A stretch of 64,000 nucleotides of DNA from Methanofollis sp. (GTDB lineage Archaea > Halobacteriota > Methanomicrobia > Methanomicrobiales > Methanofollaceae), in the NCBI GenBank assembly GCA_028696365.1, contig JAQVHG010000001.1:2401-66400 (forward strand), written 5' to 3'. Made by a program: the position numbers and the translations under genes. This document shows positions 10,235 through 61,962 of the stretch, piece after piece; the first letter of the stretch is position 1; every line of letters starts with the position of its first letter. The notes beneath the pieces were generated by a model that worked only from the letters and a program-made list of their open reading frames with translations, did no database searches and had not been told where the DNA came from.

Positions 10235-10463
10235 GGCTTTGTAGAAATCCTCTTAATGCATCTCTCTGGCGGGGGGCGTGCTGCCCCCCAAACCCCTCTC
10301 GGCACGATAAGTCGAGGGGGGCAGCACTCTCATCACAGTTGCCCATGATGCCTTCCCGACCATATCTTCATCCCGGGGGTCCGGGGGCAGAGCCCCAGGC
10401 AAGAGATTATAGGAAAGCGGGAGAGTCGCGCTCACACCAAGAATTAACAGTTTCTACAGAGCC
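10235..10463 (-). mobile_element. MITE-like repeat family A, full copy
   Basis: GGCTTTGTAGAAA...TTTCTACAGAGCC, 229 bp, internal GC hairpins. Confidence 0.85.
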
Positions 10464-10681
10464 GAATATATGCCATGATAATTGCTCAGAGCTGCGTTTC
10501 AGAAGGTAGACGGATCCCGATCCTCGCGACAGTGCAACAGAGAATGTCCTGTTCAACCGCCGCTCCTCGGCTATCTTCGTCTATGGGGGGTTCCTGGGGC
10601 GGAGCCCCCAGAACCCACGGTATGAAGATTGGGCTGGGAAGGCAGAGCTCCTGAGCACTCATTGGGCGTTTTTTTATCTCT

Positions 10682-10852
10682 GAGGTCATTCCAAAACTCT
10701 CTAGGGTTGAAGTTCTCCTCGAGCTGAAGTGCTTCCTTCCAGAAATTCTAAACGCTCTCCTCCACCGGGGGGCTTACCGCCCCTGGCCAAAGATGTGGGA
10801 AGGCGGGGGAGTCACGCTCACACCAAGAATTGACAAGAGTTTCTACAGAGCC
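10682..10852. mobile_element. Chimeric repeat: family B end plus family A end
   Basis: Starts GAGGTCATTCCAAAACTCTC; ends GAATTGACAAGAGTTTCTACAGAGCC. Confidence 0.7.
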
Positions 10853-10897
10853 GATCTTCTTGCACGCTGAGGTGCCGTCCAGAGCAATGTTCATCCA

Positions 10898-11240
10898 GAG
10901 CATATCCCAGAACTCTCAGAGGCTTGAATATCCCCTCGAACCGAGGTGCTTCCTTCCAGAAATTCAGAACCCTATTCTTCACCTGGGGGCGGGCCGCTCC
11001 CTAACCCTCGCTGATGAAGATTAAGCAGAGGCCCGCATCCTGTCATCCTGTCCCCATGGTCTTCTCTCTGCCTTCCTGTCCCTATTGCCATCACAGCGCC
11101 ACCGACGCAAGCGTTGTGGTGTCGGAAGGCAATGGGTGGATGCATGGGTGCGCAACGAAGAGGTGAGACTTTCCCCACCTTCATTCATTGCCATCTTTCT
11201 GGAAGGCGAAGGGTAGAAGAGTTAATTTTGGGATGCCCTC
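10898..11240. mobile_element. MITE-like repeat family B, full copy
   Basis: GAGCATATCCCAGAACTCTC...GAGTTAATTTTGGGATGCCCTC inverted ends; homologous in reverse to 30932-31197. Confidence 0.7.
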
Positions 11241-11446
11241 CCAGTATGTGTGATCTTCAGGTTCATGTCTGATTCTCCAGACTCGGCACCGCGAAAAATC
11301 ATGTCATCCGGACTGTGGGGCGCGTGAGAGGATGGCCTCCTGGAGCAGGCACGTAAAACAGTGGCGAGCGAGACTCATGCAGCATGCCTGAGACATGCCG
11401 TGTGCGTCGTGAATGATTCAGGAAACTGTTCAGACCTTCGACGCTC

Positions 11447-11716
11447 TCAGTCAATCCGGTTCCTGACCCAACGAGCATACTCCGAACGAATTTTTTTCTT
11501 CTCTGCGGCGTCGAGATCTTCCCTGCATGTTTCTTCGAGATAGTCCTGGAGTTGGCAGACGACTCTTTCCGCGTCCTGGTGATCAATGACTTCGAGATAC
11601 ACAGGTGCGCGCGTGGCGTCTATCACCTCGCCGCAGACATGACAGAGCTTCCAGTGCTGGTACGGATCGACATAGGTAAAGGTGAAGCACCCCGGACAGC
11701 GGATGACGCGGTACAT
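11447..11716 (-). CDS. Zn-ribbon protein (DUF1922-like)
   Basis: MYRVIRCPGC...KLCHVCG. Confidence 0.75.
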   Translation of the reverse strand: MYRVIRCPGCFTFTYVDPYQHWKLCHVCGEVIDATRAPVYLEVIDHQDAERVVCQLQDYLEETCREDLDAAEKKKIRSEYARWVRNRID

Positions 11717-11796
11717 CATCCGGAGATGGGGGTTGCTTGGTGAAAAAGATTCCTCTCTGTATCGATAAAAAGAAGAAGGGGCGTGCAGTGCCCCGG

Positions 11797-12505: not shown

Positions 12506-13010
12506 GAGGGTATCCCAGAACTCTCTGATCCTCCTCCCCAGAGACGATAGTAATAGATGAAGTCATCCCAAAACTCTCCAGTCCTCCCCCTTCGGAATAG
12601 ATCACGAAGGATGATAGTTGAGAGGTCCTCACCTCTTTGTAGTGCAACCATGCATCCATCGCCTCCCCTTACGCTCCTGCCGGGGGAGCTGCCCCCGGCG
12701 AGAAGATGGAGGAAGGTGGAGGAAGGCGGTTGAATCGCGTTCGCACCGAGAATTGGCGAGGGGTTCTACAAGGCCAGAAACTCTTACTTTTTCTTGGTTT
12801 GAGTATGATTCAACCACCTACCCCCACGTTAAGAGCACGATGAGGACAGGAAGGCACAATCGATGAATCTAAAGAGAGATTTACCGTCCACCACCTCTCG
12901 CTCGTGCGGGGGACCAGAGAGTGGCAAGTCTCCCCCAGAGATGGTTGTCTGGAGGAATTCTACAAAGCCGATTTCCCAGGGTCTGTAGAAATCCTCACCT
13001 ATTCCAGACA
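12506..13010. mobile_element. Cluster of nested repeats: B end (12506), B+A chimera (12559-12775), degenerate A (12776-12969), A end (12979)
   Basis: ATCCCAAAACTCTCC, TTCTACAAGGCC, TTCTACAAAGCC and GGGTCTGTAGAAA termini. Confidence 0.7.
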
Positions 13011-13351
13011 CAGTTGTGAAACAATCACCTTCCATCAGATAACTGTCCATATAAATTCCACACGGCCATTTCCTAAGTTTTGTTTTTGAACTCGATCGTT
13101 TTCTGGAATGAAGATCGAGGCATGGCATAAGAAAAGACAGAGGAGGGAGAGCGGTTCAGGGACCACTTACTCATGATCCCTCCTCGTGAAGAGGAGAATG
13201 GACAGCCATCAGTCAGTCAGACAATCTCCATCGCGCCCACACTTGATCCCTTGCTCTGCCATCCCTTCTTTACCACTGTACCAGAAGGGAAAGAAAAGAA
13301 GCAGGAGGTAACGAGAGCGTGCGATCCCGCATCTTGCTCTATACTATTGCC

Positions 13352-15355: not shown

Positions 15356-15476
15356 AGGTCTGTAGAAATCCTCTTGATAAATCTCTCTGGCGGGGGGCGT
15401 GCCGCCCCCAGCAAGATGATAGGAAAGGCGGATGACACGCATTCTCCCCACGATAAGTGAGGGGTTCTACAAAACC
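15356..15476 (-). mobile_element. Family A element, internally deleted (about 120 bp)
   Basis: AGGTCTGTAGAAA...GTTCTACAAAACC with the central hairpin core missing. Confidence 0.75.
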
Positions 15477-19868: not shown

Positions 19869-20100
19869 GGCTCTGTAGAAATCCTCACCTCTTGTGTGGG
19901 GGAGACGTACGTCATCCGCCTTCCTCCCTCTTTGGTCGGGGGCGCTGCCCCCGGACCCCGGGGACCACGATAGGGTCGGGAAGGCAGAACAGATAACCAT
20001 GACGAAGGAGTTGTCGTCCACGACCTATCGTGTCGCGGGGGGTTCGGGGGGCGGCACGCACCCCGCCACAGAGTTCTATCCTGGGGGTTTCTACAAAACT
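19869..20100 (+). mobile_element. Family A element, full copy
   Basis: GGCTCTGTAGAAA...TTTCTACAAAACT, 232 bp, just after the T-tract following fen. Confidence 0.85.
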
Positions 20101-21304: not shown

Positions 21305-21334
21305 ACTAGAGAGAGAAAAAAACCCAGATTTTCC

Positions 21335-21501
21335 CTGAGGGCGCTGCCCCCGGACTCCCAGGATGAAGATTGGGCAGCAGGGAAGGCATATTCAAAATCC
21401 CTGAAGAGAGATTGCCGTCCTCGACCTATCGTGACACGCGGGGGTTCGAGGGGCAGCAAGTCCCCCGCCAGAGAGAAATATCCTGAGGTTTCTACAGAGC
21501 C
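21335..21501 (+). mobile_element. Family A element, left-truncated
   Basis: Core hairpin plus right TIR TTTCTACAGAGCC, between convergent genes. Confidence 0.75.
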
Positions 21502-31197: not shown

Positions 31198-31236
31198 ACG
31201 ATAAAAAATATGAAAGACCCTCGCCTAACTACTGCT

Positions 31237-31752: not shown

Positions 31753-31931
31753 AATAAGGTGGAGAGTGTTCCTTCATCTAGTAACCCACACCTTCTTTTT
31801 ATCTCACCAATAATATTATTATATCACACACGCCACCTTGATCAGGCGGCATTTCTGGATTTGCATATTACAGAAGGCATATATGCATTGCTAGTCATCA
31901 AAACCTATTCTGACACGGGAGATGGTATACA

Positions 31932-44711: not shown

Positions 44712-44947
44712 GACTCTAGCAGAAACCCTCACCTCTTGTATGGAGGAGACGTGTGTCACCCGCCTTCCCACTCGCCCACGCCGGGGGCGAGTGCCGCCCG
44801 CACCCCCGGGACCACGATAGGGGCGGGAAGGCAGAATAGATAACCATAAAGAGAGTGTTGCCGTCCTCGACCTATCATGTGGTTGGGGGGTTTGGGGGGC
44901 GGCAAGCCCCCGCCAGAGAGATTCATCAAGAGGATTTCTACAGAGCC
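44712..44947 (+). mobile_element. Family A element, full copy
   Basis: GACTCTAGCAGAAA...TTTCTACAGAGCC. Confidence 0.82.
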
Positions 44948-45456: not shown

Positions 45457-45920
45457 ACCGGCGCAGAATCAGGTAGGAACTCTGGGCTCACGCATATGGG
45501 ATGAAAAATATTGGAGTTCTCTGGAGTGAGTTGACCCCTGCTCCCCCCTTCAGTGCAGGACACCACAGGGAACCACTGCTTCATTGCCGCCCCCGCCTCT
45601 CATCGTCGTGGGGAGTTCAGGGAGGCAAAACCCCCTAAACCCCCAATGACCACGATGGGAAAGGAAGACAGAATAGATGACCATGACGAGAGGTGCGTTA
45701 CCGTCCTCGATCTCTCGTATCGCGGCACGCCGATCAGTATGGCCGCCCTCAATTGCAGAACGTCCCCCGTTATTCTCGCGCCGGGGAGAGACCCCCCGAA
45801 ACCCCCTGCGATTGAGAATAGACGGAGGCGGCGAGTTGAACACGGCCCCCACTGATCCCACTGATTCTCCTGTCTTCATAGAGGAGATCACGCCACGAGG
45901 TATTTTCATCAGATATGCGG
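45457..45920. repeat. Mosaic of module D, family A core and module E
   Basis: CAGGACACCACAGGG...TCATTGCCGCCCCCGCC is shared (reverse) with 30130-30190, 37570-37615 and 47330-47375; 45790-45845 resembles 10545-10600 in reverse. Confidence 0.6.
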
Positions 45921-46818: not shown

Positions 46819-47475
46819 ACCCCTGTAGAAACCCTCACCAATTCTCAGTGCGAGCGCGATTCAACCGCCATCCCCCGCTGATGAAGATTGGCGGGGATCA
46901 ATCCCGTCGTCTCGGTCATCGCTCTGCCTTCCCGTTCTTATCGCCATCCTGGAAATCCGGGGGCAGAGCCCCCAGTGCAGTGGTGTGGGAAGCACGAATG
47001 TAGGGGTGCACAACGAAAAGGAGAGGGACTCCCCACTATCTCTAATGTTATCTTCTGGGAAGGGGAGGACCGGAGAGTTTTAGGAGGAACCCTATGAAAA
47101 TTGATCTCAGAGATCCACTCTATAGACTCGGGTGAGAATTTGATCACACCTAGCCTCCTCATGACTGATATACAGTGGACAAAAACATCTTCAGAATGAT
47201 CAGCCCTTCGCCTTCCCAACTCTCTCTTCATCCCCGGAGTCCGGCGGCAGCGCCCTCAGCGTACGCGTGTGGAAAGACGCGGTGATCAAGCGTTTGCCCT
47301 CATCGTAGAACTATTCCTACAATCTCACGCCGGGGGGCGGCAATGAAGGGGTGGTCCCATGTGGTGTCCTGTTCCAAAGAGGGACCAACAAGGATCCACG
47401 CACCGGAGACCACCAAGTGTTTTCAATCGCGTATGCTTGGACGGACCAAGGGTTCATACCCAATTCTACAGAGTC
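46819..47475. mobile_element. Mosaic: A end plus B end (46819-47092), module F (47093-47206), module D end (to 47475)
   Basis: CCCTGTAGAAACCCTCACCAATTC start; GGAGAGTTTTAGGAG; terminal ATTCTACAGAGTC. Confidence 0.65.
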
Positions 47476-47494
47476 AGGATCATCTTCATAGCAC

Positions 47495-47830
47495 TCAGGA
47501 CTCATCCTCGTCAGGGACATAGATGATCTCGCCGCTCTGCAACCGGTATGCTGTCCCCATCTTGCTCCCATGACCACCTGAAATCTCTTCAGTCATGTTC
47601 AGCACTTTGATCGTCTCACCGTCCTTGATGATGATCTGCATGTCTGGTTGACCAGGATTTTTCACCATGGTGAGGTCTGAAGACGAGTCCAGCATCTCCG
47701 GGACATTGTATGAGACGACGAGCGCAACCAGGAGGGCCACGGCAAAGACCATCGCCACATCAAAAAGATTGGCAACCCCGCCCAGGGGGTCCTCGTCCTC
47801 GTCGTTCATGATCAGCCTTCTTCTCCTCAT
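47495..47830 (-). CDS. DUF2149 family protein (HmuV-like)
   Basis: DPLGGVANLFDVAMVFAVALLVALV, KNPG and GTAYRL motifs. Confidence 0.85.
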   Translation of the reverse strand: MRRRRLIMNDEDEDPLGGVANLFDVAMVFAVALLVALVVSYNVPEMLDSSSDLTMVKNPGQPDMQIIIKDGETIKVLNMTEEISGGHGSKMGTAYRLQSGEIIYVPDEDES

Positions 47831-48444
47831 GACAGCACTCCAGCGACATACTCCATGTCGCTGAGATCCTGAAGATACCAGCGCCTCTTGACGAGCATGA
47901 CTGCGTACGCGATCCCTCCCACCAGCAGCCCGAGAATCGTGGTGCTGAAGGCAACGACCAGGTTGGAGGCCAGGGCCTCGATATTCCCCGCCGAAAGACC
48001 CATCAGGGCGGGCCCGAGCGGGATCAAGGTTCCCATCAGCCCGAGCATGGGGGCGATGCGGGTCAGGATCTTCAGGGAATCAAGTTCCCGTGCGATCTTA
48101 AGTTCATAGTCCTGGAGCAACTTCTCAGACTCAAGAGAGAGGCGTTCGTCCCCGATAAACCCCGCAAGGTCGCGGATATATTCTTCAAGGAACGGATTGG
48201 ACCCTGCATTTTTCAGGGCATCCGCCGCTTTGCGTCTCTCGTTCTTCTGCAAATGAAGGGAGGCGTCCCTGCACCCGTCCCTGAGCCGCGCGAGGTCACG
48301 CGTCCTCCCTGAATATTCAGAAATCACCTGCCCAAGGACGATCAACACCCACACCACAAGGAGGATGAGCGCGATGATCACCGGATACAGGAGTGCATTT
48401 GAGAGAATAAACATAATTCCCATTATTGTAGACGTAATTTCCAT
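47827..48444 (-). CDS. MotA/TolQ/ExbB proton-channel family protein (HmuU-like)
   Basis: APMLGLMGTLIPLGPAL...VAFSTT..GL motif. Confidence 0.88.
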   Translation of the reverse strand: MEITSTIMGIMFILSNALLYPVIIALILLVVWVLIVLGQVISEYSGRTRDLARLRDGCRDASLHLQKNERRKAADALKNAGSNPFLEEYIRDLAGFIGDERLSLESEKLLQDYELKIARELDSLKILTRIAPMLGLMGTLIPLGPALMGLSAGNIEALASNLVVAFSTTILGLLVGGIAYAVMLVKRRWYLQDLSDMEYVAGVLS

Positions 48445-49163
48445 TACTGACCTCCTTTGAGGTGAATTTCTTTGGAACGGTGGATAAACACACCGAGAAC
48501 AACCGGGACCGCCAGCACAGCCAGTCCCATAAACGTCCCGCTGCAGTCAAGAGGGGGGATACATAACCCTGACATCCGCTGCGCCTCGATATATGTCGGA
48601 ATAATCAGCGGACAGAGGAGATAGAAGAGCCCAAGAAAGATCATGACGCTCCCCAGGGTCGAGGGGTTCTTTTTCCCCATGCACCCGCTGACCCACGAGA
48701 CCACCAGCGACGACGCAATGATGTCAAGAAAGAACATCGCCCCTACGCCAAGACTCACGCGGAGACAGTCCATGCCGGTAGTGTCAGTGAGCACGACACA
48801 TGCAAGAAAGGTCGCGGTCAGGCATGCAGGGCATGGCAGGGACAATAACAGAAAACTGCGGCGCGAGAGATCACGCCGCCTTCCCAACCAGTCCTTTCTG
48901 GTCTTGACACCGAAACTGAGCAGGCCGAGGGCGATGATCACGTGCATGAGAAGGCCAAGCCCGAGGATCTCGGTGGTGACCTCTGCCGGAATGATACCAG
49001 AGAGCATCCCCACCACCCCGGCGGCGAGCGCATAGACTCCCGCAAAAAATATGAGTTCCCTCATCTTGAGGGAAGACAGGCCGCATCCCATTCCCGCCTT
49101 CAGCGAAAGAATGGCGATGCCTGTTATGGTGCCGGCAGTGAGAAGTCCTGCGACATCACTCAT
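48444..49163 (-). CDS. DUF2162 family membrane protein (HmuT-like)
   Basis: LKAGMGCG, LPCPACL and LGS.MIFLGL motifs; multi-TM. Confidence 0.8.
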   Translation of the reverse strand: MSDVAGLLTAGTITGIAILSLKAGMGCGLSSLKMRELIFFAGVYALAAGVVGMLSGIIPAEVTTEILGLGLLMHVIIALGLLSFGVKTRKDWLGRRRDLSRRSFLLLSLPCPACLTATFLACVVLTDTTGMDCLRVSLGVGAMFFLDIIASSLVVSWVSGCMGKKNPSTLGSVMIFLGLFYLLCPLIIPTYIEAQRMSGLCIPPLDCSGTFMGLAVLAVPVVLGVFIHRSKEIHLKGGQ

Positions 49164-49169
49164 CGTATT

Positions 49170-52100
49170 TTACCGCCTCCTGTACCAGAACCCAGCAGCG
49201 ACCGCTCCAAGGATCGCAAGTACCAGGACGAAGGCAAGCAGCGGCGTACCGGTCATGGAGGCGAGAGACGATTCCTTCGTCTGCTCCTTCATGACCTTCC
49301 CGCTCACCGTCTCGCCGGAGTCACTGGACTGAGCACCCTGTTCAGCAGGAGACTGCCCGCTCGTGCCAAACCCGGCCGACGCAGCGGTTGTGTTGGTGGC
49401 GGCATTGTCTTTTCCGGTGTTCTCCTCTTTCTCGGCGACAACATCACCGTCAGTCTTCTGCTGCGGAGCGGGATCCCAGTCTCCACCACCGCCAGAAGAA
49501 CTAGAACTCCGCTGCTGCGGAACGCTGCTGGCCACCCCGTCGATATACTCGCCAAGGACAAGGTTCCCGCAGGTATGGTGACAGCAGGTCACGCCATGCG
49601 CATCCACCGACTTCTGGTACTCCTTGGCAAGGTTCTGCTTCACCGCCTCACTTGGATTCCAGTTGCCAGTGCGGGCCGCGTCCAGCATCCGGGCGGCCAT
49701 GGACTGGAAGGCATGGGGGTTGTTGCTGTCCATGTACTCGGTGACCCCAAGGTCATGGCAGTCCTCCACATACGCCTCATAGACGCTGTCCCACATCTCG
49801 CCGGTGATGAGATCTGGCATGCTCACGTCCCAGACCCACATATTCTCAACAAATCCGTCCATATAACGGGCACCGTCAGACCCGTGTTCCATCATGCCCT
49901 TGATCCAGGCAGGGTTGAGGTAGCGCGAGTAGAGGTCGCGGCTGACAAATTTCTCCAGGGTCTCGACCACTTCACCATCGGGATCCCTGAGATTGTTGAT
50001 GTACATCTCTGGTGCATTGCCGGAGACATGCTCGATTGCCAGGCTCAATCCGCCGAAATAGGCGGCGACCTGTGAGTGATCAAGCGCCCCGTAGAGGTTG
50101 GACGATCTGCTGAAGACCCCGCAGTCGACGTCGCCCAGGTTTTCTTTGAAGACGTCGGTATACTGCTCTCCCCAAATCTCTGTGCCATAGATGTAGCCCA
50201 TTCTGTTGATGAAGAGGTCGGCGATCTTCTGCCGGTCTTCCCAGGTGTCGCTGGCGCCGATGGCACGTTCAATACCGGTACCATAGGAGTCGGGCGGGGG
50301 ACAGAAGATACGGGCACGTGAGAGTTGGCGCGCCTCGTCCTCAGTGTACCCAGCCTCTCGAAGGCTCTGATATATCGCCTCGGCATGTACTTTCACGTAG
50401 TTTGGCGTTGCACCGTCGTCGGCCTCAGCGGCAAGCCGTACCGCCTTCTCGATGAGTTCGAGTTTGCTGCCGTACAGATCACGGTACGGACCCGAGGTGG
50501 TGACCAGCACATCGATCCTGGGCCGACCGAGTTCGGAGGATGGGATGAGTTCCACGTCTTTCACACGGTTGCGCGTGTCCCAGACCGGCTGGACGCCGAG
50601 CATCGCGAAGATCTCTGATTCCATGATGCCCTGGGTGCGCGAGGTCTCGCACGACCAGAGGAGGAAGGCGACCTTGTCTGGATATTCACCATCCGCCTCA
50701 AGTTGGATCTGGAGCAGGTCGTCGCCCATCTCTTTTCCTACCTCCCATGCCGCACGCGTTGGGACTGTTCGGTCGTCGAAGGTGTGGAGGTTCCTGCCGG
50801 TCGGCAGGGCGTCTGGATTTCTTATAGGGTCTCCGTTCGGACCGGGTGGGATATATTTCGCCTCAAGTGCGTCGAGGATCCGCGGGATCTCGACAGAACA
50901 CGCATTGATACGCTCGAGGTATCCCAGGGCCAGGTCAAGGTCGGAGGTGATGGCAGACGACGTGGTCCCGAGCACCTCCAACTGGGCGCTTGCCGGTGAT
51001 GTGCCGTTGAGGACCACGGCGCTGAGGAGCACGGTTGACGCGCCTTTGGCCTGGTCGACCGTGACGACGTGTTCTTTATACTCCTGTCCGAGCATCGCCT
51101 CGATCATCGCGACCAGGCTCTCTCCTTCCGGCACCTCACTGAGGACATGAGCCCCGTACGGCATGAGGGTGGTCTTCATCTCCCGCAGATACCTGCTGAG
51201 GTCTGGGAGGAATGCCTCAAAGGCGTCGGGATCGTCCTGCAGGGTGGTCAGGTCGACGTCAAGAGCACGGTCAAGGCGCTGTTCCTGCACGGCGGCAAGA
51301 ATTTCTTCTTTGTACTGGGCCTTCACCGCATCGTCGGCGACCGACCCATAGTTTGCGATGGAATCCTCAAGGTCTGCAAATGAGCCATAGAGCCCTGAGG
51401 GGACAATGACCGGCGTCATGAAATCGACAACGGCCATGTTCGCACGGCGGGAACTGGACGTCCCCGGTGCATCCATCGGCACGATGTGGATGTGCGGCAT
51501 GTCGCCGTTCATGATCGCTCCCCAGTCGTCGGCGGCAAGGCCTGCCTCTTTCCCTGGCATCAGCACCATGTTGGAGAAGACAGAGAAGATCGCGTCGGCT
51601 TCATGGACTTGATCCATGTACCGGTAGAAGGCAAGGCACTGGTGCGTGGGAGGGACTGAGCCATCGTGATAGATCGTGCCGTCGTCCTGGTTCCAGCCCC
51701 ACAATGGATGAGGCGCAAGGACGACATTGCCGTACGTGATGGTTGGGATGACGAGTGAGCCGTCATGGACCATGATCTCTCCTGGCGGCGGCCCCCAGAC
51801 CGCGATCATCTCGTCCTGTTTTTCCTGGGGGAGGGTGTGGAACCACTCAAGGTACTGCGATTCTGGTATCAGGATGCAGTCTCCCTGCTGAACACGCTGT
51901 TCCAGGATCTCAGGGGCCCACGTCGCGATGTTGTGGCCTCTGGTCTTCATCAATGTCGCAAGTTCGTCGGCGTCAGGGAGGGGTTCTGAGCCGAGGTCGT
52001 AGCCGCGCTCTTGCATCGCACCGAGCAGTGCCGAGAGACTAGCGGGTGCGTCGAGGTAATAATCGATGTCGGCGCCGACATTGACTTTCCCGCCGGCTGC

Positions 52101-53975
52101 GGCATAGTAGGGGATCACAATCTTCTTCTCGCCATTGGAGGCGCGATGGAGCCTGGCCCACCCAAGGACTCGCTCGGTCAGCCATGCCACCTGGTCGTCG
52201 ATCGGTTTGTTGCAGAGGGTACCGGTATCTGAGTTCAGTTCCTTGGCGGCGATGACGATCGGTTCGATGAGACCGTCCTGTTCTGCATAACTTAACTGGT
52301 ATCTTTGTCTGAGGTCGACGCCATGAGGGCTGTTCCTCCATGTTGTCTCATTCGTATAGAAGAGCCCAAAGGCGTTGAATGTGGGGACATTCAGTTTCTG
52401 CAGGTCTTCGATACCGCGTTCTGGATCCTTGGAATTGAGCCTATGGCCTCCGGTCGAGACTCGAACCGCGGTTTCAATAAGCGCTTCATCGTCTTTGAAG
52501 AAATATCCAACTCCCATAGGATCTTTACGACTATAGGTGGCCACAATGACATTTGCACCCTTATCCTCGAACGACCTGATCACACCATCAAAGAGCGCTC
52601 TGTCTCGATCAAGGTACTTGAATGAACTGAACATGATCCCGACGGTCGGCGCTGCGGCGTCATAGGTGTCTGTGGTCGTATACCAGTCCAGATAACTGGC
52701 AGAGTCGAAAAAAATCCCGGGTGCGTCGGGGTGATAGATCCCATAGATCGGACGTTCTTCAGGTGGCTCCACGCTCATACTGAGATTGCAATAGGTTACA
52801 CCAATAAAACGGGCAAGGTTGTTGCCATTTTTCTCCGAAATGTATGTAATATACTCCTGGATCGTGGAGAATTCGTCGTCTGCAGGATCGACAGTATGAA
52901 GATGATAACTCTGTTCTAGCGCGCCACAGGCAATGACCTCGGCACCTTTCTCCCTGGCCTGCATCACAGTGTCTTTAAGTGCGTTAAGGGCTGTTGGAGT
53001 TAGATGGTAGAGGATAATAACATCTGAATTTCCGAGATCAAAGGGGGAATCTTTGTATGATGTAGCCAGATACGCGGTCGCGTTTATCTCCGCACTGATG
53101 AAAGGGTCGTCGGCGACGGTATTCATCAACTTGACTTCAGAATTACCCTTTGTGACAAAACTGATCTCTGGCCTGTCGGCGGGAGGCACTGGTGCGGTGA
53201 GGTTGTGGGATGTCCCATATCCGACTTCGTCCAGTGCGAGGATGAGATTGTTGAGGTTCTCCTCTCCGCCGTAGAGCCAGTACCTGGTCATGTTCTCGTC
53301 TACAGGGATACCGGCAGCAGGACCGTCACTGAGACCAAAGGTGATCACGGTGGCGTTCTCATTCAGGGTGGCATTGACCGATTCCACGGTGGTGTTGTCG
53401 AGTGATGCCAGGAATAGAAGGCTCTCATTGGAAAAGTCGTATAGGAGCGCACTTGTCTCGTTGAGGAGCGTCACGTTCAGGGGCGCGGCGGCCGCAACAG
53501 TGTCCAGGGCTTTAGGTATACTGGTTTCGTTGACGACAAAGGTAAGGCGGTGGAGCGTCTTGTTCTCTTCCAGTACGGTGGTGTTGGAGTCCTCGATCAG
53601 GGTGCTGTTCGATGCTTCCTCCAGCACCTCTGGAGTCACGGTCACCACAGGGGTGGCGTTCTCTGCGGCGGGAACCTCCTCGGTAATGTTCGCGGTCGAC
53701 TCAGGGGTAATGTTCTCCGCGACGGGGTCAGCGACATCCTCTGCAGAAGTGTTCCCTGCTCCACCACCTATACTCTCGGTGGTATTCACCGACGTTTGAT
53801 CGTCCGTGTGGGGAGGAGTGGTGATGTCGTTGTCGTCTCCGTCCAGGGTGGTGTTGGAGGTCTCGCCCTCTTCAGGGACGGTGCCGCGTTCCAGTAGGAC
53901 GTCAGGTGCGTACGCTCCCACACACTGGAAGATCAGCAGCAGGACGAGAAGGCATGCAATGATGGACCGCTTCAT
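49170..53975 (-). CDS. Secreted, C-terminally anchored CobN/ChlH-family chelatase-like protein (HmuS/BtuS-like)
   Basis: ATG 53975 with GGAG RBS; signal peptide; LPTGRN, LGRPRIDV, SG.YRD, YLNPAWIKGMM.HG and CCHHTC motifs; C-terminal TM plus WYRRR. Confidence 0.88.
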   Translation of the reverse strand: MKRSIIACLLVLLLIFQCVGAYAPDVLLERGTVPEEGETSNTTLDGDDNDITTPPHTDDQTSVNTTESIGGGAGNTSAEDVADPVAENITPESTANITEEVPAAENATPVVTVTPEVLEEASNSTLIEDSNTTVLEENKTLHRLTFVVNETSIPKALDTVAAAAPLNVTLLNETSALLYDFSNESLLFLASLDNTTVESVNATLNENATVITFGLSDGPAAGIPVDENMTRYWLYGGEENLNNLILALDEVGYGTSHNLTAPVPPADRPEISFVTKGNSEVKLMNTVADDPFISAEINATAYLATSYKDSPFDLGNSDVIILYHLTPTALNALKDTVMQAREKGAEVIACGALEQSYHLHTVDPADDEFSTIQEYITYISEKNGNNLARFIGVTYCNLSMSVEPPEERPIYGIYHPDAPGIFFDSASYLDWYTTTDTYDAAAPTVGIMFSSFKYLDRDRALFDGVIRSFEDKGANVIVATYSRKDPMGVGYFFKDDEALIETAVRVSTGGHRLNSKDPERGIEDLQKLNVPTFNAFGLFYTNETTWRNSPHGVDLRQRYQLSYAEQDGLIEPIVIAAKELNSDTGTLCNKPIDDQVAWLTERVLGWARLHRASNGEKKIVIPYYAAAGGKVNVGADIDYYLDAPASLSALLGAMQERGYDLGSEPLPDADELATLMKTRGHNIATWAPEILEQRVQQGDCILIPESQYLEWFHTLPQEKQDEMIAVWGPPPGEIMVHDGSLVIPTITYGNVVLAPHPLWGWNQDDGTIYHDGSVPPTHQCLAFYRYMDQVHEADAIFSVFSNMVLMPGKEAGLAADDWGAIMNGDMPHIHIVPMDAPGTSSSRRANMAVVDFMTPVIVPSGLYGSFADLEDSIANYGSVADDAVKAQYKEEILAAVQEQRLDRALDVDLTTLQDDPDAFEAFLPDLSRYLREMKTTLMPYGAHVLSEVPEGESLVAMIEAMLGQEYKEHVVTVDQAKGASTVLLSAVVLNGTSPASAQLEVLGTTSSAITSDLDLALGYLERINACSVEIPRILDALEAKYIPPGPNGDPIRNPDALPTGRNLHTFDDRTVPTRAAWEVGKEMGDDLLQIQLEADGEYPDKVAFLLWSCETSRTQGIMESEIFAMLGVQPVWDTRNRVKDVELIPSSELGRPRIDVLVTTSGPYRDLYGSKLELIEKAVRLAAEADDGATPNYVKVHAEAIYQSLREAGYTEDEARQLSRARIFCPPPDSYGTGIERAIGASDTWEDRQKIADLFINRMGYIYGTEIWGEQYTDVFKENLGDVDCGVFSRSSNLYGALDHSQVAAYFGGLSLAIEHVSGNAPEMYINNLRDPDGEVVETLEKFVSRDLYSRYLNPAWIKGMMEHGSDGARYMDGFVENMWVWDVSMPDLITGEMWDSVYEAYVEDCHDLGVTEYMDSNNPHAFQSMAARMLDAARTGNWNPSEAVKQNLAKEYQKSVDAHGVTCCHHTCGNLVLGEYIDGVASSVPQQRSSSSSGGGGDWDPAPQQKTDGDVVAEKEENTGKDNAATNTTAASAGFGTSGQSPAEQGAQSSDSGETVSGKVMKEQTKESSLASMTGTPLLAFVLVLAILGAVAAGFWYRRR

Positions 53976-54482
53976 GGATGCGCACACTCCCGGGCATCAT
54001 GAAAAGATCCTGACGGGCTGTAAGCCGCCTCTGCATACCAGGTGAATATTTCGACGCCCTCTCCAGACATCGTGCCCTGCATTTCTATACCTGAGCGCGG
54101 AGGACTGATCCCCGCACCCTGATCTCCCGTCTCCCGAGCGATGTCTGCACTGCGGTGCCCGGGATCTGGTATTATTTTTCGTAGATCGACACTCGTGTAC
54201 ATAGAATACCCTGTCTGAAATTTCTTTGAGCTGTGTTCAATTCAGGAAATAGAGATTGAATGGCGGGGTGCTGCACATTTCGTCTCTACTTGAGATCAAA
54301 ATCGACATCCCAACCTGTGTACTTACAAAGCGGTTCGGGAACGATAATCTCTATCCAAAAAATCGTCCGAAATTGATTATATCCGAAAAATGTTCGATTT
54401 AGAGTAATTTTTTTGGGTAGATGAGAATTTTTAGGGCTTAGATCAATATAGAGGGGGCAAAGATCCCCAGATATAATTTCTA

Positions 54483-54850
54483 GGCTCTGTAGAAACCCTC
54501 ACCTCTTGTGTGGGAGAGATGTGTGTCATCCGCCTTCCCACTCTTTGACCGGGGGCGCTGCCCCTGGACCCCCAGGATGAAGATAGGGCCGGGAAGACAC
54601 CATCAATGATCGTGAAGAGCGTATTGCCGTCTGCCATCAATTGCTCGCGCGTCGGGGATCGGGGGGCGGCCAACCCCCCGCAGAGATGGCCATCCCGAGC
54701 ATTTCTACAGAGCCAGCGCTGTAGAAACCCTCACCCCTTCCTGGGTGTGAACATGACTCACCTACCTTCCTACATCTTTGGCCGGGGGCGAGTGCCACCC
54801 TGACCCCCTGAGACCACGATGAGGACGGGAAGGCAGAATAGATGACCAGT
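54483..54850 (+). mobile_element. Two tandem family A elements (54483-54714 full; 54715 to about 54850 right-truncated)
   Basis: GGCTCTGTAGAAA...TTTCTACAGAGCC immediately followed by AGCGCTGTAGAAACCCTCACC. Confidence 0.82.
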
Positions 54851-55056
54851 CCCTCCCAAGGGAATAGTATAGATCCATGCCCTTTTCAGAGGCCCATGAT
54901 ATTTTCATCGTGTATCCTTGAGCCAGAGGATCTTCCCCTCCCCCTCTTTTTTCGAGATTGAAAGAGTATGTTCATCAAGCAAATCATATATCAGATGAGA
55001 ATAATATTTATTTCATATTACATACGCAGAAGTCCTATACTTCGCCGGTGAGGTGG

Positions 55057-55402: not shown

Positions 55403-55631
55403 GGCTCTGTAGAAACCCTCACCAATTCTTGGTGTGAGCGCAACTCAACCCCCTTCCCTCATCATCTCGCCGGGGGCTTGCCCCCGGACCCCCTGGATAG
55501 CGATGGGGACGGGAAGGCACAATGGACGACTGTGACGAGAGTGCTGCCGTCCTCGATGAATCGTGCCGCGGGGGGTTTGGGGGGTGCAGCCCCCCGCCAC
55601 CGAGAGGAGCTAGGAGGATTTCTACAGAGCC
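55403..55631 (+). mobile_element. Family A element with degenerate 8-bp TSD
   Basis: Perfect 13-bp TIRs; flanks CAAATCAT and GAAATTAT (6/8). Confidence 0.88.
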
Positions 55632-55632
55632 G

Positions 55633-56276
55633 AAATTATCTTGAACTCACTACCGTTCGTATCTCGAAGATCGAAGATCTTCTTAAAGAGGAGATTTTCT
55701 GTCTACGACCTATCTTGGCATGAGGGGTGTGGGTGTGGGTGTGGGGGCGGCACGCCCCTCTCCGCTGGAATCCATCCAGAGGGTATCTATAAATCCTAAA
55801 GATTACCCTGTAGAAACCCTCACTATTTCTCGGTGCGAGCGTGATTCAACCGCATTTCCCCATTTTCTCGCCGGGGGCGTTGCCCCCAAAATCCCGGAAG
55901 ATTTCTACAGAGCCCAAACCATCTTCATCTGATCTGGTGGCGATCTTCTCCCTCACACTGGCCCCATGATGAGGACGATAGGCCCTGTAGATTCCTCACC
56001 AATTCTTAGAGATCATCCCAAAACTCTGGCTCTGTAGAACCATCTTAATGATTCTCTTCGGCGGGGTGCGTGCCGCCCCCCCCCGAACCTCTACGTGAAG
56101 ATAGATAGCAGACGGCATTACCCTCTCCATGATCATTGGTTGTGCTTTCCCAGCCCAATCTTCGTCCCAGAGGTCCGAGGGCAGAATCCCCAGTGTGAGC
56201 ATGGAGGAAGGCGGAGGAATCATACTCGAACCAAGAAAAGTGAGGTTTTTTACACAGCCGTGAATTCTACAAAGCC
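55633..56276. mobile_element. Repeat pile-up: module C, A fragments, short A (55804-55914), B end (56009), full A (56028-56259)
   Basis: Multiple CTGTAGA and TCTACA termini; GATCATCCCAAAACTCT. Confidence 0.72.
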
Positions 56277-56503: not shown

Positions 56504-56504
56504 C

Positions 56505-58211
56505 TCAGTTCTTGGCTGAGATGATGAGCGAGCGCTCGCCTGCAGGCTCGAACTCGCGGATCGCACCCTTTGCAAACTCCTTCCTCGGCTCAGCGAAGTT
56601 GAACTTGAGGGACGGGTCGGCGAAGGTGATCTTGACCAGCGGAGCGTAGCAGTACGCGTCGCCACGGCCGTAGTGGGCACCGCCGACGATAGCGGCGTAT
56701 TCGCCCTGGTGACCGACGTTCATCGCGTAGTTCGGGTAGTTCGGGCCACGGAGTTCGCCCATCAGACCGCGGTCAGGCTCCATGGAGAGGGAGTTGGCTG
56801 AACCGCACTGGTCCTGCAGGTCGTAGCCGAAGAAGCCAAGCCTCGACCAGGCGTCCTTGTGCAGGAGCATGGAGAGGTACCAGCCGTTGAGACCAGCGTT
56901 GGAGTTCCCGGTACTGATCGAGCAGGTCAGACCACAGGCTGCAGCCATGACACCGGCACGCTGGGACCCACCGAAGTGGTCTTCCATCATGGTCGGGAAC
57001 TGCTCGTACTGCTCCATGGCGTTGAGCGAGACCTCGGTGGCGAGGTCGTTGACAACGTCCTGGGTCGGCTTGAGCATGTTCTGGCCAGGCTGAGTGTAGT
57101 CGAAGCCGTACTTGTCCTTGAGGTAATCCATACCGTAGTAGGTGAACTCATCGAGGATGTTGTCGGTGTACGCCGCGGTGGCGTACTGAGTGAACCCGAC
57201 ACCGCCTGACATGTAGGATCCAAGCCAGATCTGGTCGAAGAGCATGGTCCCTGCACCGACGACCTCGAGGGCCGCCTTTGCGGGGTCGTTCGGGTACTTC
57301 CGGTTCGCCTGGATGATATCGGAGAAAAGACCGAACTTGATACCGCCTGGCTCGTTCGGGCCACGTGCACGACGGGCCGGGAGGATGGTACCCATCTGGA
57401 CAACACCAGCGTGCTTTGCGGCGAAGGACAGGTCAGCGACTGCTGCCTCACCGGCGCACATACGGTATGCGGCGATGAAGGACATCCCGATCTGCATCGC
57501 AGACCACCTGGAGGTGGTACCGCCGTCGCACGTCCTGGAGACGATAGTCGGGATGTGGATTGCCTGATACATCGAGTTGCCGACCTCGGCCTTCAGCTCC
57601 TCAGCCTGATCGGCTGGGAAGAGCTTCTCGATGTCGAGGAGGAACTGGGGTTCGATGTCGTCGGCGAGCTCGTCGTCACCGGTGAAGACCTTGACGTAGC
57701 AGTCGTCGACAAGCCCTGGGTGGGTCTCGACCATGTGTTCCTGAACCACGGCTGCACCCGGCATGGCGTGGTTGAGGGTGTGGAGATACTCGTTGATCGT
57801 CTCAGGAGTGACCTCCTTGCCAAGCCTCTTCTGGAGAGTGGCGTGGGCCATGTCCATGCCGACGATGACAGTCCTGCGGATGTCGTCCCAGAACTGCTGC
57901 ATCGCAGAGTTATTGACGAAGTGCAGGTCGTCGCCCTCGACGAAGGTGCCAGTGCCTGAGACCTCGTAGGTCATCAGCTGGCGCTGACCCATCGGGATAC
58001 CACCGAGGTGGCAGCGCTCAGGGTCGTACATGGAAATACCACGCTTGGCTTCGATTGCCTTGGTGGCTTCCATGAACTCGCGCTTTCTCGGGGACTGGCG
58101 GACGCCGTTGAAGTTGTAGAACTGAGTCTTCTCAGACTGGACGTCCTGTCCCTGGAACTTCTCTTTCAGTGACTTGAGGAACAGTTTCTGGGCTCTCTCA
58201 ATCTTTGCCAT
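56505..58211 (-). CDS. mcrA: Methyl-coenzyme M reductase alpha subunit (568 aa)
   Basis: [11 protein letters not shown] start at 58211; [39 protein letters not shown] and NYAMNVGH motifs. Confidence 0.98.
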
Positions 58212-58216
58212 TGCAA

Positions 58217-58981
58217 TCACTCCTCCTTGGGCATGAAGCCGTACTTGGTCCTCAGCGTGTGGATGCGCTGGATGTATTCGATGTATTCCTCGTCCTCGCG
58301 GAACGCAGTCCCGACGAGTGAGTGGAACATAGTGGTGTGCTCCTTGAGCCACTTCTCGTTCATCGGCTTGCCGACATCAACCGGGCGGTCGAGGGGGACA
58401 CCGACCTGGTCCTTGACGTACTTGACGACACCGTCGTCGCCGAGGACACAGCGCTGGAGAGCGTCGAACATCATGCCGTCCTCTGCAAGACGGAGGGAGT
58501 GACCGTGCACGGTCGCACCACGGATGCCTACGGTGGCCGGGTCGAACATCTCGGTCTCGATGAGGAACTTGGCGTACTGGTCGAGGTCACGCTCGCGGCA
58601 CTCGACGATCTGACGGCCAGAGAGCGTACCGGAGTCGATAGCACGGAAGCGGTACATCTCGGCGTAGGTCCTCTGGTATGGCTGCGAGGGTGCGTTGAAC
58701 ATAGAGTCTGCAAACTGGACGTACCTGACACGGTCGCCGGCCTTCGCACCGTCGGTCGGCTTGACGATCTTGCGCATCGGGTCTTCGGGCTCCTGCTGCT
58801 CGGCCAGAGGCGGGTGAGCCGTTGGGTAGGCCGCACCAGGGGCACGGTGTCCAAGGATAAGGACGACGTCCTCATCAGTTACTGAACGAAGTTTTTCGAG
58901 TTCGTGGCCGGGGTTCATCTGGTTGCGCCTATTCTGGGCAACAATCGAAGTTCCCGGACCATACTGTGGTTTGTATGCCAT
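58217..58981 (-). CDS. mcrG: Methyl-coenzyme M reductase gamma subunit
   Basis: GHRAPG, GTLSGRQ and [12 protein letters not shown] motifs. Confidence 0.97.
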
Positions 58982-58990
58982 TTTGTAACC

Positions 58991-59530
58991 TCAATTGGAA
59001 TAATTTGAAGTATGTTCTGTCTGCGTCTGATCAGACAGTCCTCCCCCATTGTCGTTGCATGCCGCAGCCGGGATGATGACGGGGCTGTCATGTCGTCTTG
59101 GGTCGGTGAGTCCGATGATGAACTCGTCGGCGTTGGGACCGTACTTGGCGTAATCCACCAGGGATGCCTGGCTCTTAATGAACTGGCGTCCGGTCTGGAG
59201 GGTATATGGGAATGCCGTGAAGATCTCGTCACAGGCGTTCCGTACGGCCTCGATGACTGATTCGTCTCTGACCTCAAGGGTGACCATACCGGTCTGGCCC
59301 CGCATCTCAAATTCAGTGCCGCGGACCTGGATCGTCTGTCTGTTGGTATTGGGATTTGCTGCTCCTCGTGCCGGACCATAGGGAATGGTAACCGGGAGGG
59401 AGGGGCCGTTGATAACGGCCCGGCGCACACCCGGGATCCCTGCGATCTGGTTGAGGAGACGCTCCGTCGTCGCAGGTGAGAGGAGCCGCAGTGGGACGAT
59501 CCTGCACTGGGGGAAGACCGAATCAGGCAA
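58991..59530 (-). CDS. mcrD: MCR operon protein D (F430 chaperone), with C-terminal extension
   Basis: P.RLL...T.E.LLN, GPSLP..IPYGPARG and DYAKYG motifs; TTG start overlapping the mcrB stop. Confidence 0.92.
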   Translation of the reverse strand: MPDSVFPQCRIVPLRLLSPATTERLLNQIAGIPGVRRAVINGPSLPVTIPYGPARGAANPNTNRQTIQVRGTEFEMRGQTGMVTLEVRDESVIEAVRNACDEIFTAFPYTLQTGRQFIKSQASLVDYAKYGPNADEFIIGLTDPRRHDSPVIIPAAACNDNGGGLSDQTQTEHTSNYSN

Positions 59531-60839
59531 TCAGATCCACGCCCTTGGCGATCTGGTCGATCGGCTTTTTGAAGACGTCGATCTGGCCGTAGGTCTCGCC
59601 CATTACCTTGGAGGAGCCCTCAGGTGAGAACATCTGGGTGCCTGCATCGAGAGCACAGGCGGCAACGGCGCACGGAATCGCGACGCCGTTTGCGTGCCTG
59701 GTCACGACGTGGTTGCCGTTGAAGATACCCGGACCGCCGCCACCGTAGATGGAGTGGCTGAAGAAGGAGAAACCGACGGCGGTACCCATCATGCGGCCGA
59801 AGTCGCAGGACGGCAGGCCAGTCTCGTGCTCGATGAGGTCGTTGAAGTACAGGAGAGTCGAGGAGACCGCCTGTGCAAACCGGCCAGCACCACAGTTGAC
59901 AACCGTGGCGGCGAGGGAACCGGCAGCGACGTAGGCGTTCCAGAGCATCGGGTCGTTCGTGTTGTAGAACTGGAAGTACCCGCCCTTCTTGCCTGGAGTG
60001 ATAACCTTGTCCTCGATCGCACGCTCAACGAGAGACTGGACCACGGTACCGACGGTGCCGTTCTCGCCGTTTGCCTTGACCAGGTCGTAAACCATGTTGT
60101 TGGCGTTAAGACCCTGGTAGGCGTAGCAGAGGAGCTGGTTGCGCTCGAAGGGGCCGATTGCCTCGCCCATCTCGAACTCACCGGCGGTCTCGAGGGTGGA
60201 CGCAAGGGCGGCACCCTGGAGGGAGTTCCTGCCGGTCATCATAACAAAGTGGTTGACCGGAATGTTCCTCAGAGCGAAGCCGAGGCCTTCGTTATTCTGG
60301 GGAATGTTGAGGATGGAGGTGACGTTGCTGCCCTTGACGTCCATGGTCTGTGGGTATGCACCCCAGCAGGCCGCCTTGACGGTGGACGCGTTGAACATGT
60401 CGATGTCGAACTCTTCGACGATCGAGTAGGTAGTCGCCGAGGCGACTGCCGTGAGTGCAGCGTCGTAGGTTGCGGCATTGTCGAGGCGCTTTCTCGGCAC
60501 CTGGACAAGAAGGAGTTGGCCGTTGTTGAATTCGAGGATCTCGGTGTCGTCACCCTCCTCGACCTGGACCATCTCCTTGATCCTGGCGACAATGTTGTCT
60601 TTGTTCTCCATGATCGGGAGGTCGAGTTCACGCCCCCTGATCTTTCCTCCGCCGAGCTTTGCGGCCTTGAGGCTGTTCTCAATGCCAGCAAGGTTGACAT
60701 TGATAGTACGCTTGGTCAGGTCGATGATCTTGCTTGTCGCAGGGTTCACCAACGGGCTGACCTTGTCGAGGGTAACTCCGCTTTTCAGCAGTTTACCGTC
60801 ATCTGAATAGAGATCGATGGTTTCTGAATATGCTGCCAT
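59523..60839 (-). CDS. mcrB: Methyl-coenzyme M reductase beta subunit
   Basis: AYQGLNANN and SFFSHSIYGGGGPGIFNGNHVVTRH motifs. Confidence 0.98.
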   Translation of the reverse strand: MAAYSETIDLYSDDGKLLKSGVTLDKVSPLVNPATSKIIDLTKRTINVNLAGIENSLKAAKLGGGKIRGRELDLPIMENKDNIVARIKEMVQVEEGDDTEILEFNNGQLLLVQVPRKRLDNAATYDAALTAVASATTYSIVEEFDIDMFNASTVKAACWGAYPQTMDVKGSNVTSILNIPQNNEGLGFALRNIPVNHFVMMTGRNSLQGAALASTLETAGEFEMGEAIGPFERNQLLCYAYQGLNANNMVYDLVKANGENGTVGTVVQSLVERAIEDKVITPGKKGGYFQFYNTNDPMLWNAYVAAGSLAATVVNCGAGRFAQAVSSTLLYFNDLIEHETGLPSCDFGRMMGTAVGFSFFSHSIYGGGGPGIFNGNHVVTRHANGVAIPCAVAACALDAGTQMFSPEGSSKVMGETYGQIDVFKKPIDQIAKGVDLIA

Positions 60840-60970
60840 ATCAGTACATCCTTTTACCCTTTGTGTAGGAAGGTATGTTCTTCAAGAATTCCACCCGGTA
60901 AATGGTATGAAATTCCTGAGCGTCACTACTGCAAGCCCCTATCTGGGACTATATATCTATCCAGCGATGC

Positions 60971-60985
60971 TCATATAAAATTTCC
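60971..60985 (-). promoter_or_regulatory. Probable BRE/TATA promoter of the mcr operon
   Basis: Minus strand GGAAATTTTATATGA about 135 bp upstream of the mcrB ATG, within an AT-rich tract. Confidence 0.6.
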
Positions 60986-61498
60986 TAATCTTTTTTAATA
61001 ATTTAACATGACATTTTACATTAAAGTGGATTATTATTGCAGATATCTATTATTTAACATCAAATTATCGTCAGAATATAAGCAGGCAAGAATATGCCCC
61101 AAATACGTTTGATTTCATATATTATCTAACTATTGAAGAAATAACCGTAAAAAATACTCCTAATTAAATAGATAGACAAAATAATGTCGATTACATATCA
61201 TAATCTTATTATATCTGCGGACAGAGATCTGCTCTCATCTACCCTCCACCCCGACATCGACAGATCAGGAGATCTGGACCAGATGCAGGGCGTAACCAGG
61301 ACAAAGACAAACAGAAGGATTTACAGAGGGGTTTCATCTTTTTCATCCTGAATCGGCACCGATCAGGAAGAGATTCCACCCTAGGACTTGAATGTGATTC
61401 TACCACTGCTCCATATCTTTTCGCTGTGGACACTCTCACTCGCATTCCCCACATTCTCAGGGAGAAGATATGAGGGGAAGGCAGATACAATATTTTCG

Positions 61499-61962
61499 GG
61501 CCTTGTAGAAAACCTCACCTCTTCTGGGTACGAGTGCGATTCAACCGCCTTCCCTCATCTTCTTGCCGGGGGCTCTCCCCCCGGACCTCCGGGACCACGA
61601 TAGTGTCGAGGAGGCAGAATAGAAGACCATAATGAGGGTGCTGCCATCCTCGAACCTATCGTGTGGCCGGGGAGCTGGGGGGGGCGGCTAAGCCCACCGA
61701 CAGAGAGATTCATCTAGAAGATTTCTACAGAGCCGGTATGAGCATGAATCAATCGCCTTCCCACAGTGGTTGCGCCTGGGATCCTGGAAACACTTCGCGG
61801 TTCTCGAACTCGTTCACGCTCGTTCCCCCAGGATAAAGAGAGAGGAGGGACGACAGACTCGAAATGCTTAAAGAAAGGTTGCCATCCACGACTTATCTTG
61901 GTGTGTGGGGTCCAGGGGACACAAACCCCCCTGGAACCTATCAAGAGGAACTCTACAAAGCC
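61499..61962 (+). mobile_element. Family A element (61499-61734) abutting an older left-truncated copy (61735-61962)
   Basis: GGCCTTGTAGAAA...TTTCTACAGAGCC; second terminus CTCTACAAAGCC. Confidence 0.8.

Follow-up and report, generated by a model that had tools for sequence, protein, structure and literature searches.

The window, the whole stretch of 64,000 nucleotides analysed here, is part of contig C267 of a Methanofollis assembly (G000; 2.42 Mb in 358 contigs, N50 8.4 kb, 81% complete). Its genes, called with our own codon-model caller (calls consisting mostly of repeat were dropped), include the mcr and fwd operons; a tRNA scan of the window gave no match, and an Rfam scan at the gathering score gave 0 matches. 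The gaps between the genes are crowded with short gene-less elements, which we divide by their ends into types A, B and C. Very probably these represent a single GC-rich hairpin core carried between three types of end, each moved by the enzyme of an insertion sequence (IS) with matching ends and exchanging parts with the others through the core. The support is drawn from the sequences: the ends, the flanking duplications, empty sites, IS partners with identical ends, a guide-target match, chimeras and mosaicism. The nearest relative, the sister genome G002 (two contigs, 2.87 Mb), is 92-96% identical over the two stretches searched, and the whole-genome comparison spans 2.0 of its 2.87 Mb. Near-identical DNA is present in landfill, sediment and biogas sequencing runs. 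In a comparison of 301 genomes of the phylum the core was found solely in the genus to which the window belongs, and a GTDB-wide pattern scan, which may omit near relatives, gave two matches, both in Methanofollis; all 12 of the 12 Methanofollis genomes contain the type A element, which is densest in this genome and G002.

Three types of element and their candidate partners

The type A end is a 13-bp motif that matches 35 times in the window with at most 2 mismatches, against 1.04 expected, and 1,074 times genome-wide; the spacing of facing pairs of ends peaks at 220-240 bp. A perfect 8-bp duplication flanks 51 of the 248 genome-wide end pairs, compared with 0.43 in shuffles, and lengths of 2-7 and 9-13 bp show no excess among the same pairs. 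The inner six bases of the target are 86% AT, against a background of 49%. A hidden Markov model (HMM) built from 62 duplication-bearing copies has a consensus of 233 bp and finds 1,169 non-redundant matches covering 7.2% of the assembly, and 0 in the reversed genome; 36 of these are in the window, 12 at full length. A preliminary description of the window had counted about 25 copies, which is if anything low, and all 16 of the listed copy starts that were checked read as type A ends, that at 44712 being degenerate. Its expectation of hundreds of copies per genome is borne out by the genome-wide matches, among which 213 copies are two-armed, and no type A or type B base falls inside a called window gene, in keeping with its statement that all copies are intergenic. 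The conservation of the termini that it described is partly an artefact of choosing copies by their ends. With terminal inverted repeats, many copies and no transposase match inside them, type A is, on these features, a MITE (miniature inverted-repeat transposable element) of the IS5 kind, and a real and dense family.

Comparison with G002 provides 8 empty sites over 1.2 Mb, in which one genome has the element and its duplication and the other a single target; this figure counts tight empty sites only, in a test in which type B arms were unmasked. Four lie in each direction, and in four the 8-bp target agrees at 7-8 positions. A stricter orthology test over 2.0 Mb gives 6 empty sites, of which 2 are of type B. 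The window copies at 42859-43091 and 55403-55914 both correspond to empty sites in G002, and these orthologous empty sites establish past movement of type A elements. Those at 42530 and 56028 occupy the same sites in both genomes, so that their insertion predates the split. Contigs of seven sequencing runs over two window stretches contain, among the matches listed, no joint that exactly skips a copy; contigs drop rare variants, and this comparison does not address activity. Among typed type A copies the duplication is perfect in 47, has one mismatch in 35 and two mismatches in 23.

No transposase had been seen with these elements, but an open reading frame bounded by the same ends is present in relatives, where it was reached through PF01609 matches. 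It lies in an IS of 1,008-1,009 bp with type A ends and perfect 8-bp duplications, of which there are seven copies in G020, one intact copy in G005 and a broken one in G009. The DDE transposase matches NF033579 at 216-237 bits (cut-off 140) as well as PF01609, and is 70% identical to the NCBI 'IS5-like element ISMepa1 family transposase'. Type A shares with this ISMepa1-like IS5 the terminal repeats, the 8-bp duplication and the left/right asymmetry in the bases beyond the 13-mer, whereas the interiors are unrelated, with no homology between them. All that remains of the partner in this genome is a 43-codon remnant, and the two contigs of G002 contain no match to the query. The partner may belong to the ISH1 group of IS5, which the duplication and the length of about 1 kb fit. 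The preliminary description had named either ISL3 or this group as the source; the IS5 assignment agrees with the partner transposase, and the ISL3 transposase domain PF01610 was not found in this genome or in 5 relatives. Mobilisation in trans of a non-autonomous element, also proposed there, is supported by the 8-bp excess that emerged when duplication lengths were tabulated genome-wide, by the empty sites in the sister genome and by the IS with the same ends, and is its likely mode of movement. We note that the partner's frame has no internal stop (L011, L013, L016, L019, L022, L024, L026 and L028; G020 and G005) and runs out through the right end, and the C-terminus therefore differs copy by copy; in L028 it extends about 230 codons into flanking DNA, and homologue lengths of 289-453 aa agree with a stopless frame.

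The elements are not a single family as first described, since the window also has type B ends (10682, 10898-11240, 12559 and 56009) and type C ends (11274, 29261, 29882, 37341 and 45467). Type B was discovered as a second pair of arms by clustering the flanks of 515 core matches. It is 333 bp long, with 20-bp ends starting GAG, and is flanked by a 3-bp duplication in 52 of 72 cases against 2.9 in shuffles. Its candidate partner is a two-frame IS5 of 870 bp in G005 with identical asymmetric ends and a 3-bp duplication (AGA), whose frames match NF033580 at 110 and 85 bits (cut-off 110); this family was not found in this genome or in G002.

A more intricate relationship is seen with type C, which starts just after base 12 of a type A end and stops just before the remainder of that end, with AA on both sides and no duplication in the junction logos. 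The first 12 bases of the type A end precede 58 of 73 type C left ends here and 112 of 138 in 2 Mb of G002, and for type C right ends the remainder of the type A end comes next in 16 of 21 cases in this genome and in 58 of 85 in those 2 Mb; type C is carried by 41 of 449 typed type A ends here and by 93 of 301 in G002. Copies range from 56 to about 410 bp and retain only some 60 bases of an IS110 left end. The same ends bound an intact IS110 (L208, in G340), with DEDD and Transposase_20 domains (PF01548, PF02371 and NF033542 above cut-off), and a broken one (L203, in G005), both of which are inserted in sites of the type A end kind; in G002 the non-coding region of an IS110 is kept and the gene is disrupted. 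Half-cores also occur in type C, as a left half in G008 and G010 and a right-half piece in this genome.

The region upstream of the recombinase gene can be aligned across 14 related IS110 elements, and in 9 of the 9 scored the predicted donor guide corresponds to the element's own right end plus core. The predicted target guide matches the element's own insertion site with a score of 5.7 compared with 4.5 when permuted (p about 1e-4), or 5.9 against 4.4 (p about 1e-4) with one element per close group, with guide anchors that were picked after viewing the alignment. The targets of L210 and L217 were mispicked, which lowers the score, L221 was excluded as non-homologous, and rows without an end were unscored. 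As a single-sequence fold the region is no better than shuffles (z 0.0). On these ends and guides type C is an IS110 bridge recombinase element reduced to a gene-less form and predicted to parasitise type A ends under RNA guidance; given how little of the left end its copies retain, it would require both enzyme and RNA in trans. Two further arrangements are seen at related loci. In G005 a full IS5 (L017:1000-2062) has its left end split by a minimal type C element of 56 bp. In G394, a genome from another family of the order, locus L207 holds two elements without genes whose left end is C-like and lies within a TTG variant of the type A end, and whose interior is unrelated; a TTG guide matching this variant is present in the intact IS110 of G340.

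Shared core, chimeras and mosaic copies

The cores of types A and B are 79% identical over 159 columns. There are 307 two-armed elements in the 2.42 Mb, of which 213 are A-A and 54 are B-B, and the remaining 24 B-A and 16 A-B elements are chimeras. Of these 40, 38 could be painted by diagnostic bases and mostly switch inside the core; the chimeras lack a duplication excess, and some B-B copies with an intact duplication have an A-like middle.

Divergence among the copies is considerable. The median nearest-neighbour identity among 196 type A copies is 84%, and only 2 of the 196 have a neighbour at 95% or more, as expected for the old expansion suggested in the preliminary description. At conserved inner columns each copy departs from the consensus at about 9% of positions, mostly through transitions and independently of the state of its duplication, whereas the duplication classes imply roughly 4% change per side; it is therefore likely that copies were already diverse at insertion or were later overwritten. 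The identities of the left and right halves correlate at 0.29, compared with 0.63-0.79 in 30 clonal simulations, and linkage decays with distance along the element (rho -0.36, against -0.03 to 0.06 in the simulations). These patterns show the copies to be recombinant mosaics, and mosaicism accounts for much of the internal divergence.

The core also occurs in other settings. In G003 (L190-L196) and G001 (L200-L201), species nearly devoid of the type A end motif, it lacks type A or type B arms and is arrayed in tandem and set between other flanks; a de novo search for ends in other species returned mostly chance pairs. G003 also has about 17 identical copies of another IS5-like element, that is, an active IS burst, yet few type A or B ends.

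Arrangement in the window and association with gene order

The left part of the window begins with a full-length type A element at 10235-10463 (minus strand), recognised by the HMM and arm typing, whose duplication has decayed to 4 of 8 positions. It is followed by nested fragments at 10592-10852, comprising a core piece, a type B left end at 10682 (plus strand) and a type A left arm ending at 10852 (minus strand), and then by a full-length type B element at 10898-11240 (minus strand) with the duplication CCA/CCA. The latter lies directly behind the left end of a type C, IS110-derived element, which is within a decayed type A end at 11241-11286 (minus strand; type C end at 11274). A cluster at 12506-13036 contains type B left ends at 12506 and 12559, type A fragments and a type A right end at 12969. 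Type A is then represented by an internally deleted copy at 15356-15476 (minus strand), a full-length one downstream of the flap endonuclease gene at 19869-20100 (plus strand), the right two-thirds of a copy between convergent genes at 21328-21501 (plus strand) and a copy with an internal insertion at 27631-27949 (minus strand).

The full-length type A element at 28349-28582 (plus strand) has the perfect 8-bp duplication CCAGATCC and is followed by an internally deleted type A copy at 28683-28873 (plus strand) and by a composite at 29251-29668 (plus strand), which consists of the first 12 bases of a type A end, a type C left end from 29261, core and a type A right arm, with 6 of 8 duplicated positions matching. 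Fragments at 29791-30268 include a type C right end at 29882 and a type A right end at 29942. The decayed type B element at 30932-31195 (plus strand) is near one border of a block (31197-37136) that is inverted in G002. At the other border is a further composite at 37125-37614 (plus strand), in which a type A element (37125-37342) has its right end split by type C (type C right end at 37341-37360), so that elements stand at both borders of the inversion.

To the right of this block, an internally deleted type A copy at 41808-41965 (minus strand) contains a tandem repeat (41818-41880; three copies of a unit of about 19 bp), and a decayed copy at 42530-42770 (plus strand) has its site occupied in G002. 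The type A element at 42859-43091 (minus strand) has the perfect duplication CTATTTTC, and the empty site in G002 has one CTATTTTC; this duplication and CCAGATCC had both been reported in the preliminary description and are confirmed. A type A copy with a decayed left end (44712-44947, plus strand), a type C left end (45467) with a core fragment (45465-45725, plus strand) and a chimera of a type B left end and a type A arm without a duplication (46819-47092, minus strand) complete this part. The block at 46874-54914, which contains cobN (1,605 aa), is missing at the syntenic place in G002 and has element clusters at its borders.

A full type A element (54483-54714) with a truncated second copy directly after it occupies 54483-54932 (plus strand). 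The plus-strand composite at 55403-55914, downstream of the mcr operon, is a block of 512 bp built of three type A pieces. Flank matches of 6 of 8 had been described for 55403-55631 and 29251-29668, and both are present, but the real partner of the left duplication at 55403 follows 55914; the pair reads CAAATCAT/CAAACCAT (7 of 8), and G002 keeps a single CAAATCAT and lacks the 512 bp as one unit. The type A element at 56028-56259 (minus strand), common to G002, has a type B end nearby at 56009. On the upstream side of the mcr operon, a full type A element (61499-61734) and a truncated neighbour together span 61499-61962 (plus strand) and are absent from the shorter gap of G002. This operon (56505-60839) thus has element clusters on both flanks, and a second mcr operon is present in this genome (G000:C348), as there are two in most of the genus.

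Types A and B together cover 8.7% of the assembly and 23% of its non-coding DNA, and 10% and 39%, respectively, in the window; with type C the coverage is 10.0% of the assembly and 11.9% of the window. Nearly all of this sequence is intergenic. Elements are present in 138 of 186 convergent gaps, 186 of 489 co-directional gaps and 55 of 213 divergent gaps. Where gene ends near intact copies are considered, 21 of 90 3' ends but only 1 of 49 5' ends lie within 60 bp, and 99 of 124 gaps are occupied in both sister species. Gene order is associated with the elements as well. Adjacent genes are split in G002 at 72 of 196 element-bearing gaps versus 9 of 106 free gaps (at least 150 bp), and in complete-genome comparisons scored by elements beside the G002 orthologue breaks number 7 of 17 versus 0 of 24 and 8 of 19 versus 0 of 17, with G004 and G005 not being independent in this comparison. 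It is likely that the elements help to reshuffle gene order, with the elements as the presumed cause of the breaks.

Competing explanations and related systems

A plausible scenario, and the one we hold to be very probable, is that the 1,008-bp IS5 enzyme would move type A, with duplication of 8-bp AT-rich targets, and the two-frame 870-bp IS5 enzyme would move type B with 3-bp duplications. An IS110 bridge RNA acting in trans would steer type C to a fixed point in the type A end with a shared AA and no duplication. Parts of A, B and C would then be exchanged by recombination through the shared core, and which copies survive would be decided by selection against those landing in genes and promoters and not by hairpin function. 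Host recombination would be responsible for the mosaics and gene-order breaks, and the expansion would have halted as the partners were broken or lost in the lineage.

Several observations weigh against this scenario. No intact type A, B or C partner was found either in the complete sister genome or in the 81%-complete assembly, and on this account the expansion looks old; an IS present in several copies could have escaped this assembly, though none of 48 element ends at contig ends reads into IS sequence. Type C holds only part of the core, the evidence in this genome being a consensus of 4 to 6 copies, and the guides of the two nearest IS110 relics are each one base off the type A end. Paired positions mutate less than unpaired ones (transitions about 0.055 versus 0.08), a difference not predicted by neutral decay alone. 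The association with breaks is weaker for long gaps (46 of 120 versus 5 of 27, p 0.07) and disappears if the elements in the gaps of G005 itself are used for scoring (3 of 11 versus 5 of 25), and elements and breaks may both simply favour tolerant regions. Chimeras and duplication-less copies are not enriched at breaks (12 of 32 versus 8 of 24 intact copies, p 0.79); loss of the duplication was accordingly rejected as a sign of long-range crossover, which fails to explain these copies, and local events must do so.

The same observations bear on what the core itself may do. It could serve transposition, as a host-protein site or an end-joining fold, such that a captured core helps any IS ends to spread; this we regard as unlikely, although the same core lies between A ends, B ends, partly C ends and other arms in other species, is tandemly arrayed in G003, where it lacks A and B arms, and has GC blocks that are its best conserved part and paired positions that mutate less. 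Nesting of B and C within A together with local recombination would bring about core capture without any advantage, short elements lacking much of the core are still flanked by duplications (80-190 bp, among 96 duplication-bearing pairs), and a 56-bp type C exists. A broader proposal, in which the hairpin core is the spreading unit, a selfish cassette switching by recombination between two DDE systems and an RNA-guided recombinase and forming a network of about 500 pieces per Mb that drives gene-order change in Methanofollis, is similarly doubtful. Less probable still is that copies have been domesticated, with the hairpin kept by host selection because it terminates transcripts or stabilises RNA at the 3' ends of genes. 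The enrichment in convergent gaps and beside 3' ends, the occupancy of gaps in both species and the fold of the type A consensus into one long hairpin (-134 kcal/mol, z about -8) would favour such a role, but there is no excess of compensatory changes (156 cells versus 143 expected), which counts equally against an advantage of the core, no strand or G-U bias (stem G>A is as frequent as C>T) and no Rfam match. Moreover, orientation beside 3' ends is not fixed (14:7 and 9:5), some sites are empty in the sister species, and the placement is explained by a T-rich target preference and selection against promoter insertions. Selection on the hairpin, raised in the preliminary description, is not supported.

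Two other explanations can hardly be right. One is that the partner is an ISL3 element, or that the repeats are REP-like (repetitive extragenic palindromic) units spread by a Y1 (HUH) transposase. AT-rich 8-bp duplications and GG ends do fit ISL3, and one Y1 transposase is present in this genome, but PF01610 was not found in this genome or the 5 relatives and the IS with these ends encodes an IS5 transposase; the Y1 model was rejected, the only Y1 gene belonging to an ordinary single tnpA-tnpB element without these ends. The genome's single IS200/IS605 element (G000:C231:2155-3675; tnpA plus tnpB) has a G-rich/C-rich hairpin at its left end that is loosely core-like, with no HMM match. The other explanation, just as improbable, attributes the density, chimeras and breaks to fragmented metagenome assembly. 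Public contigs do break inside copies and the assembly is in 358 pieces, but the two-contig G002 is alike (in 2.0 Mb, of which 7.4% is masked, there are 812 matches, with 107 type A, 19 type B and 10 chimeric elements), window junctions recur letter for letter in contigs from other studies, and of 7 element-bearing junctions that G002 has split, 6 are found adjacent in G004 or G005.

Every ingredient of the preferred reading, in which matching IS enzymes move three end types around one core, has a precedent. Methanogen MITEs derived from IS5 (partners ISMma12, ISMac15, ISMba19 and ISMbu10) are present in 5-24 copies, with 34 the maximum in the table, and archaeal MITEs sharing only their ends with an IS in 2-34 (Kamoun et al. 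2013, PMC3852290). Like type A they are gene-less, 140-250 bp long, flanked by duplications and have only terminal repeats in common with the IS5 partner; they differ from the present case, with its 213 two-armed type A copies and 1,169 matches and its two IS5 subtypes and an IS110 under one core.

A title cited in PMC11187229 has IS4321/IS5075 targeting the terminal repeats of Tn21, and type C is similar in that an IS110-family element is aimed at the end of another element. The IS621 bridge recombinase moves a 22-bp donor with its RNA in trans (PMC11208160), and shares with the IS110/type C system an upstream non-coding region with target and donor guides, a two-base core and the lack of a duplication. 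Type C differs from these systems in being archaeal, in its AA rather than CT core, in its IS5/MITE-end target and in that most copies are gene-less and without the guide region; as a non-autonomous element in high copy number it may be a natural donor for an archaeal bridge recombinase with an AA core. MITEPpu9 of Pseudomonas putida (8 copies, with a small RNA gene, sitting with the REP-targeting ISPpu9; PMC12288879) is likewise non-autonomous with IS110 ends, whereas type C left ends number at least 73 in this genome and 138 in 2 Mb of G002, and the element bears fragments of its host MITE's core. ERIC (711 copies in Photorhabdus; PMC10969869), Chunjie (178-235 bp, 9-bp duplication) and the BIME and NIME mosaics (PMC3184786) resemble these elements in description, with no sequence relation seen, as hundreds of intergenic hairpin repeats in mosaic clusters that are targets for other IS; unlike them, the present mosaic is made of arms that belong to different transposase systems.

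In a census of MITEs the highest archaeal count is 251 elements in a genome, and the densest bacteria devote 1.23% of the genome to them (PMC11602168). With 307 two-armed elements and about 10% of its sequence this genome would rank among the archaeal genomes with the heaviest MITE load yet described, although the census needs near-identical copies and the figures are not strictly comparable. The literature searched, which left the census supplement and ISfinder outside, mentions as MITEs in Methanofollis or Methanomicrobiales only one 6-copy M. hungatei element and gives no account of this family, its density or one core under several end types; the density and the union of one core with three mobilisation systems thus appear new in that literature. 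A report that 3 of 6 gaps in a Methanofollis genome are structured (PMC3409199) would fit. The MITE families described here are not definable by their ends alone, and they offer a case in which the marking of gene-order change between species by small repeats can be tested, as well as a practical explanation for fragmented assemblies and spurious short open reading frames in Methanofollis.

Among other repeats, we note families of 9-20 copies outside the type A, B and C masks, represented in this genome by C308:11600-12034, C295:2964-3284, C79:462-597 and C143:4759-4939.

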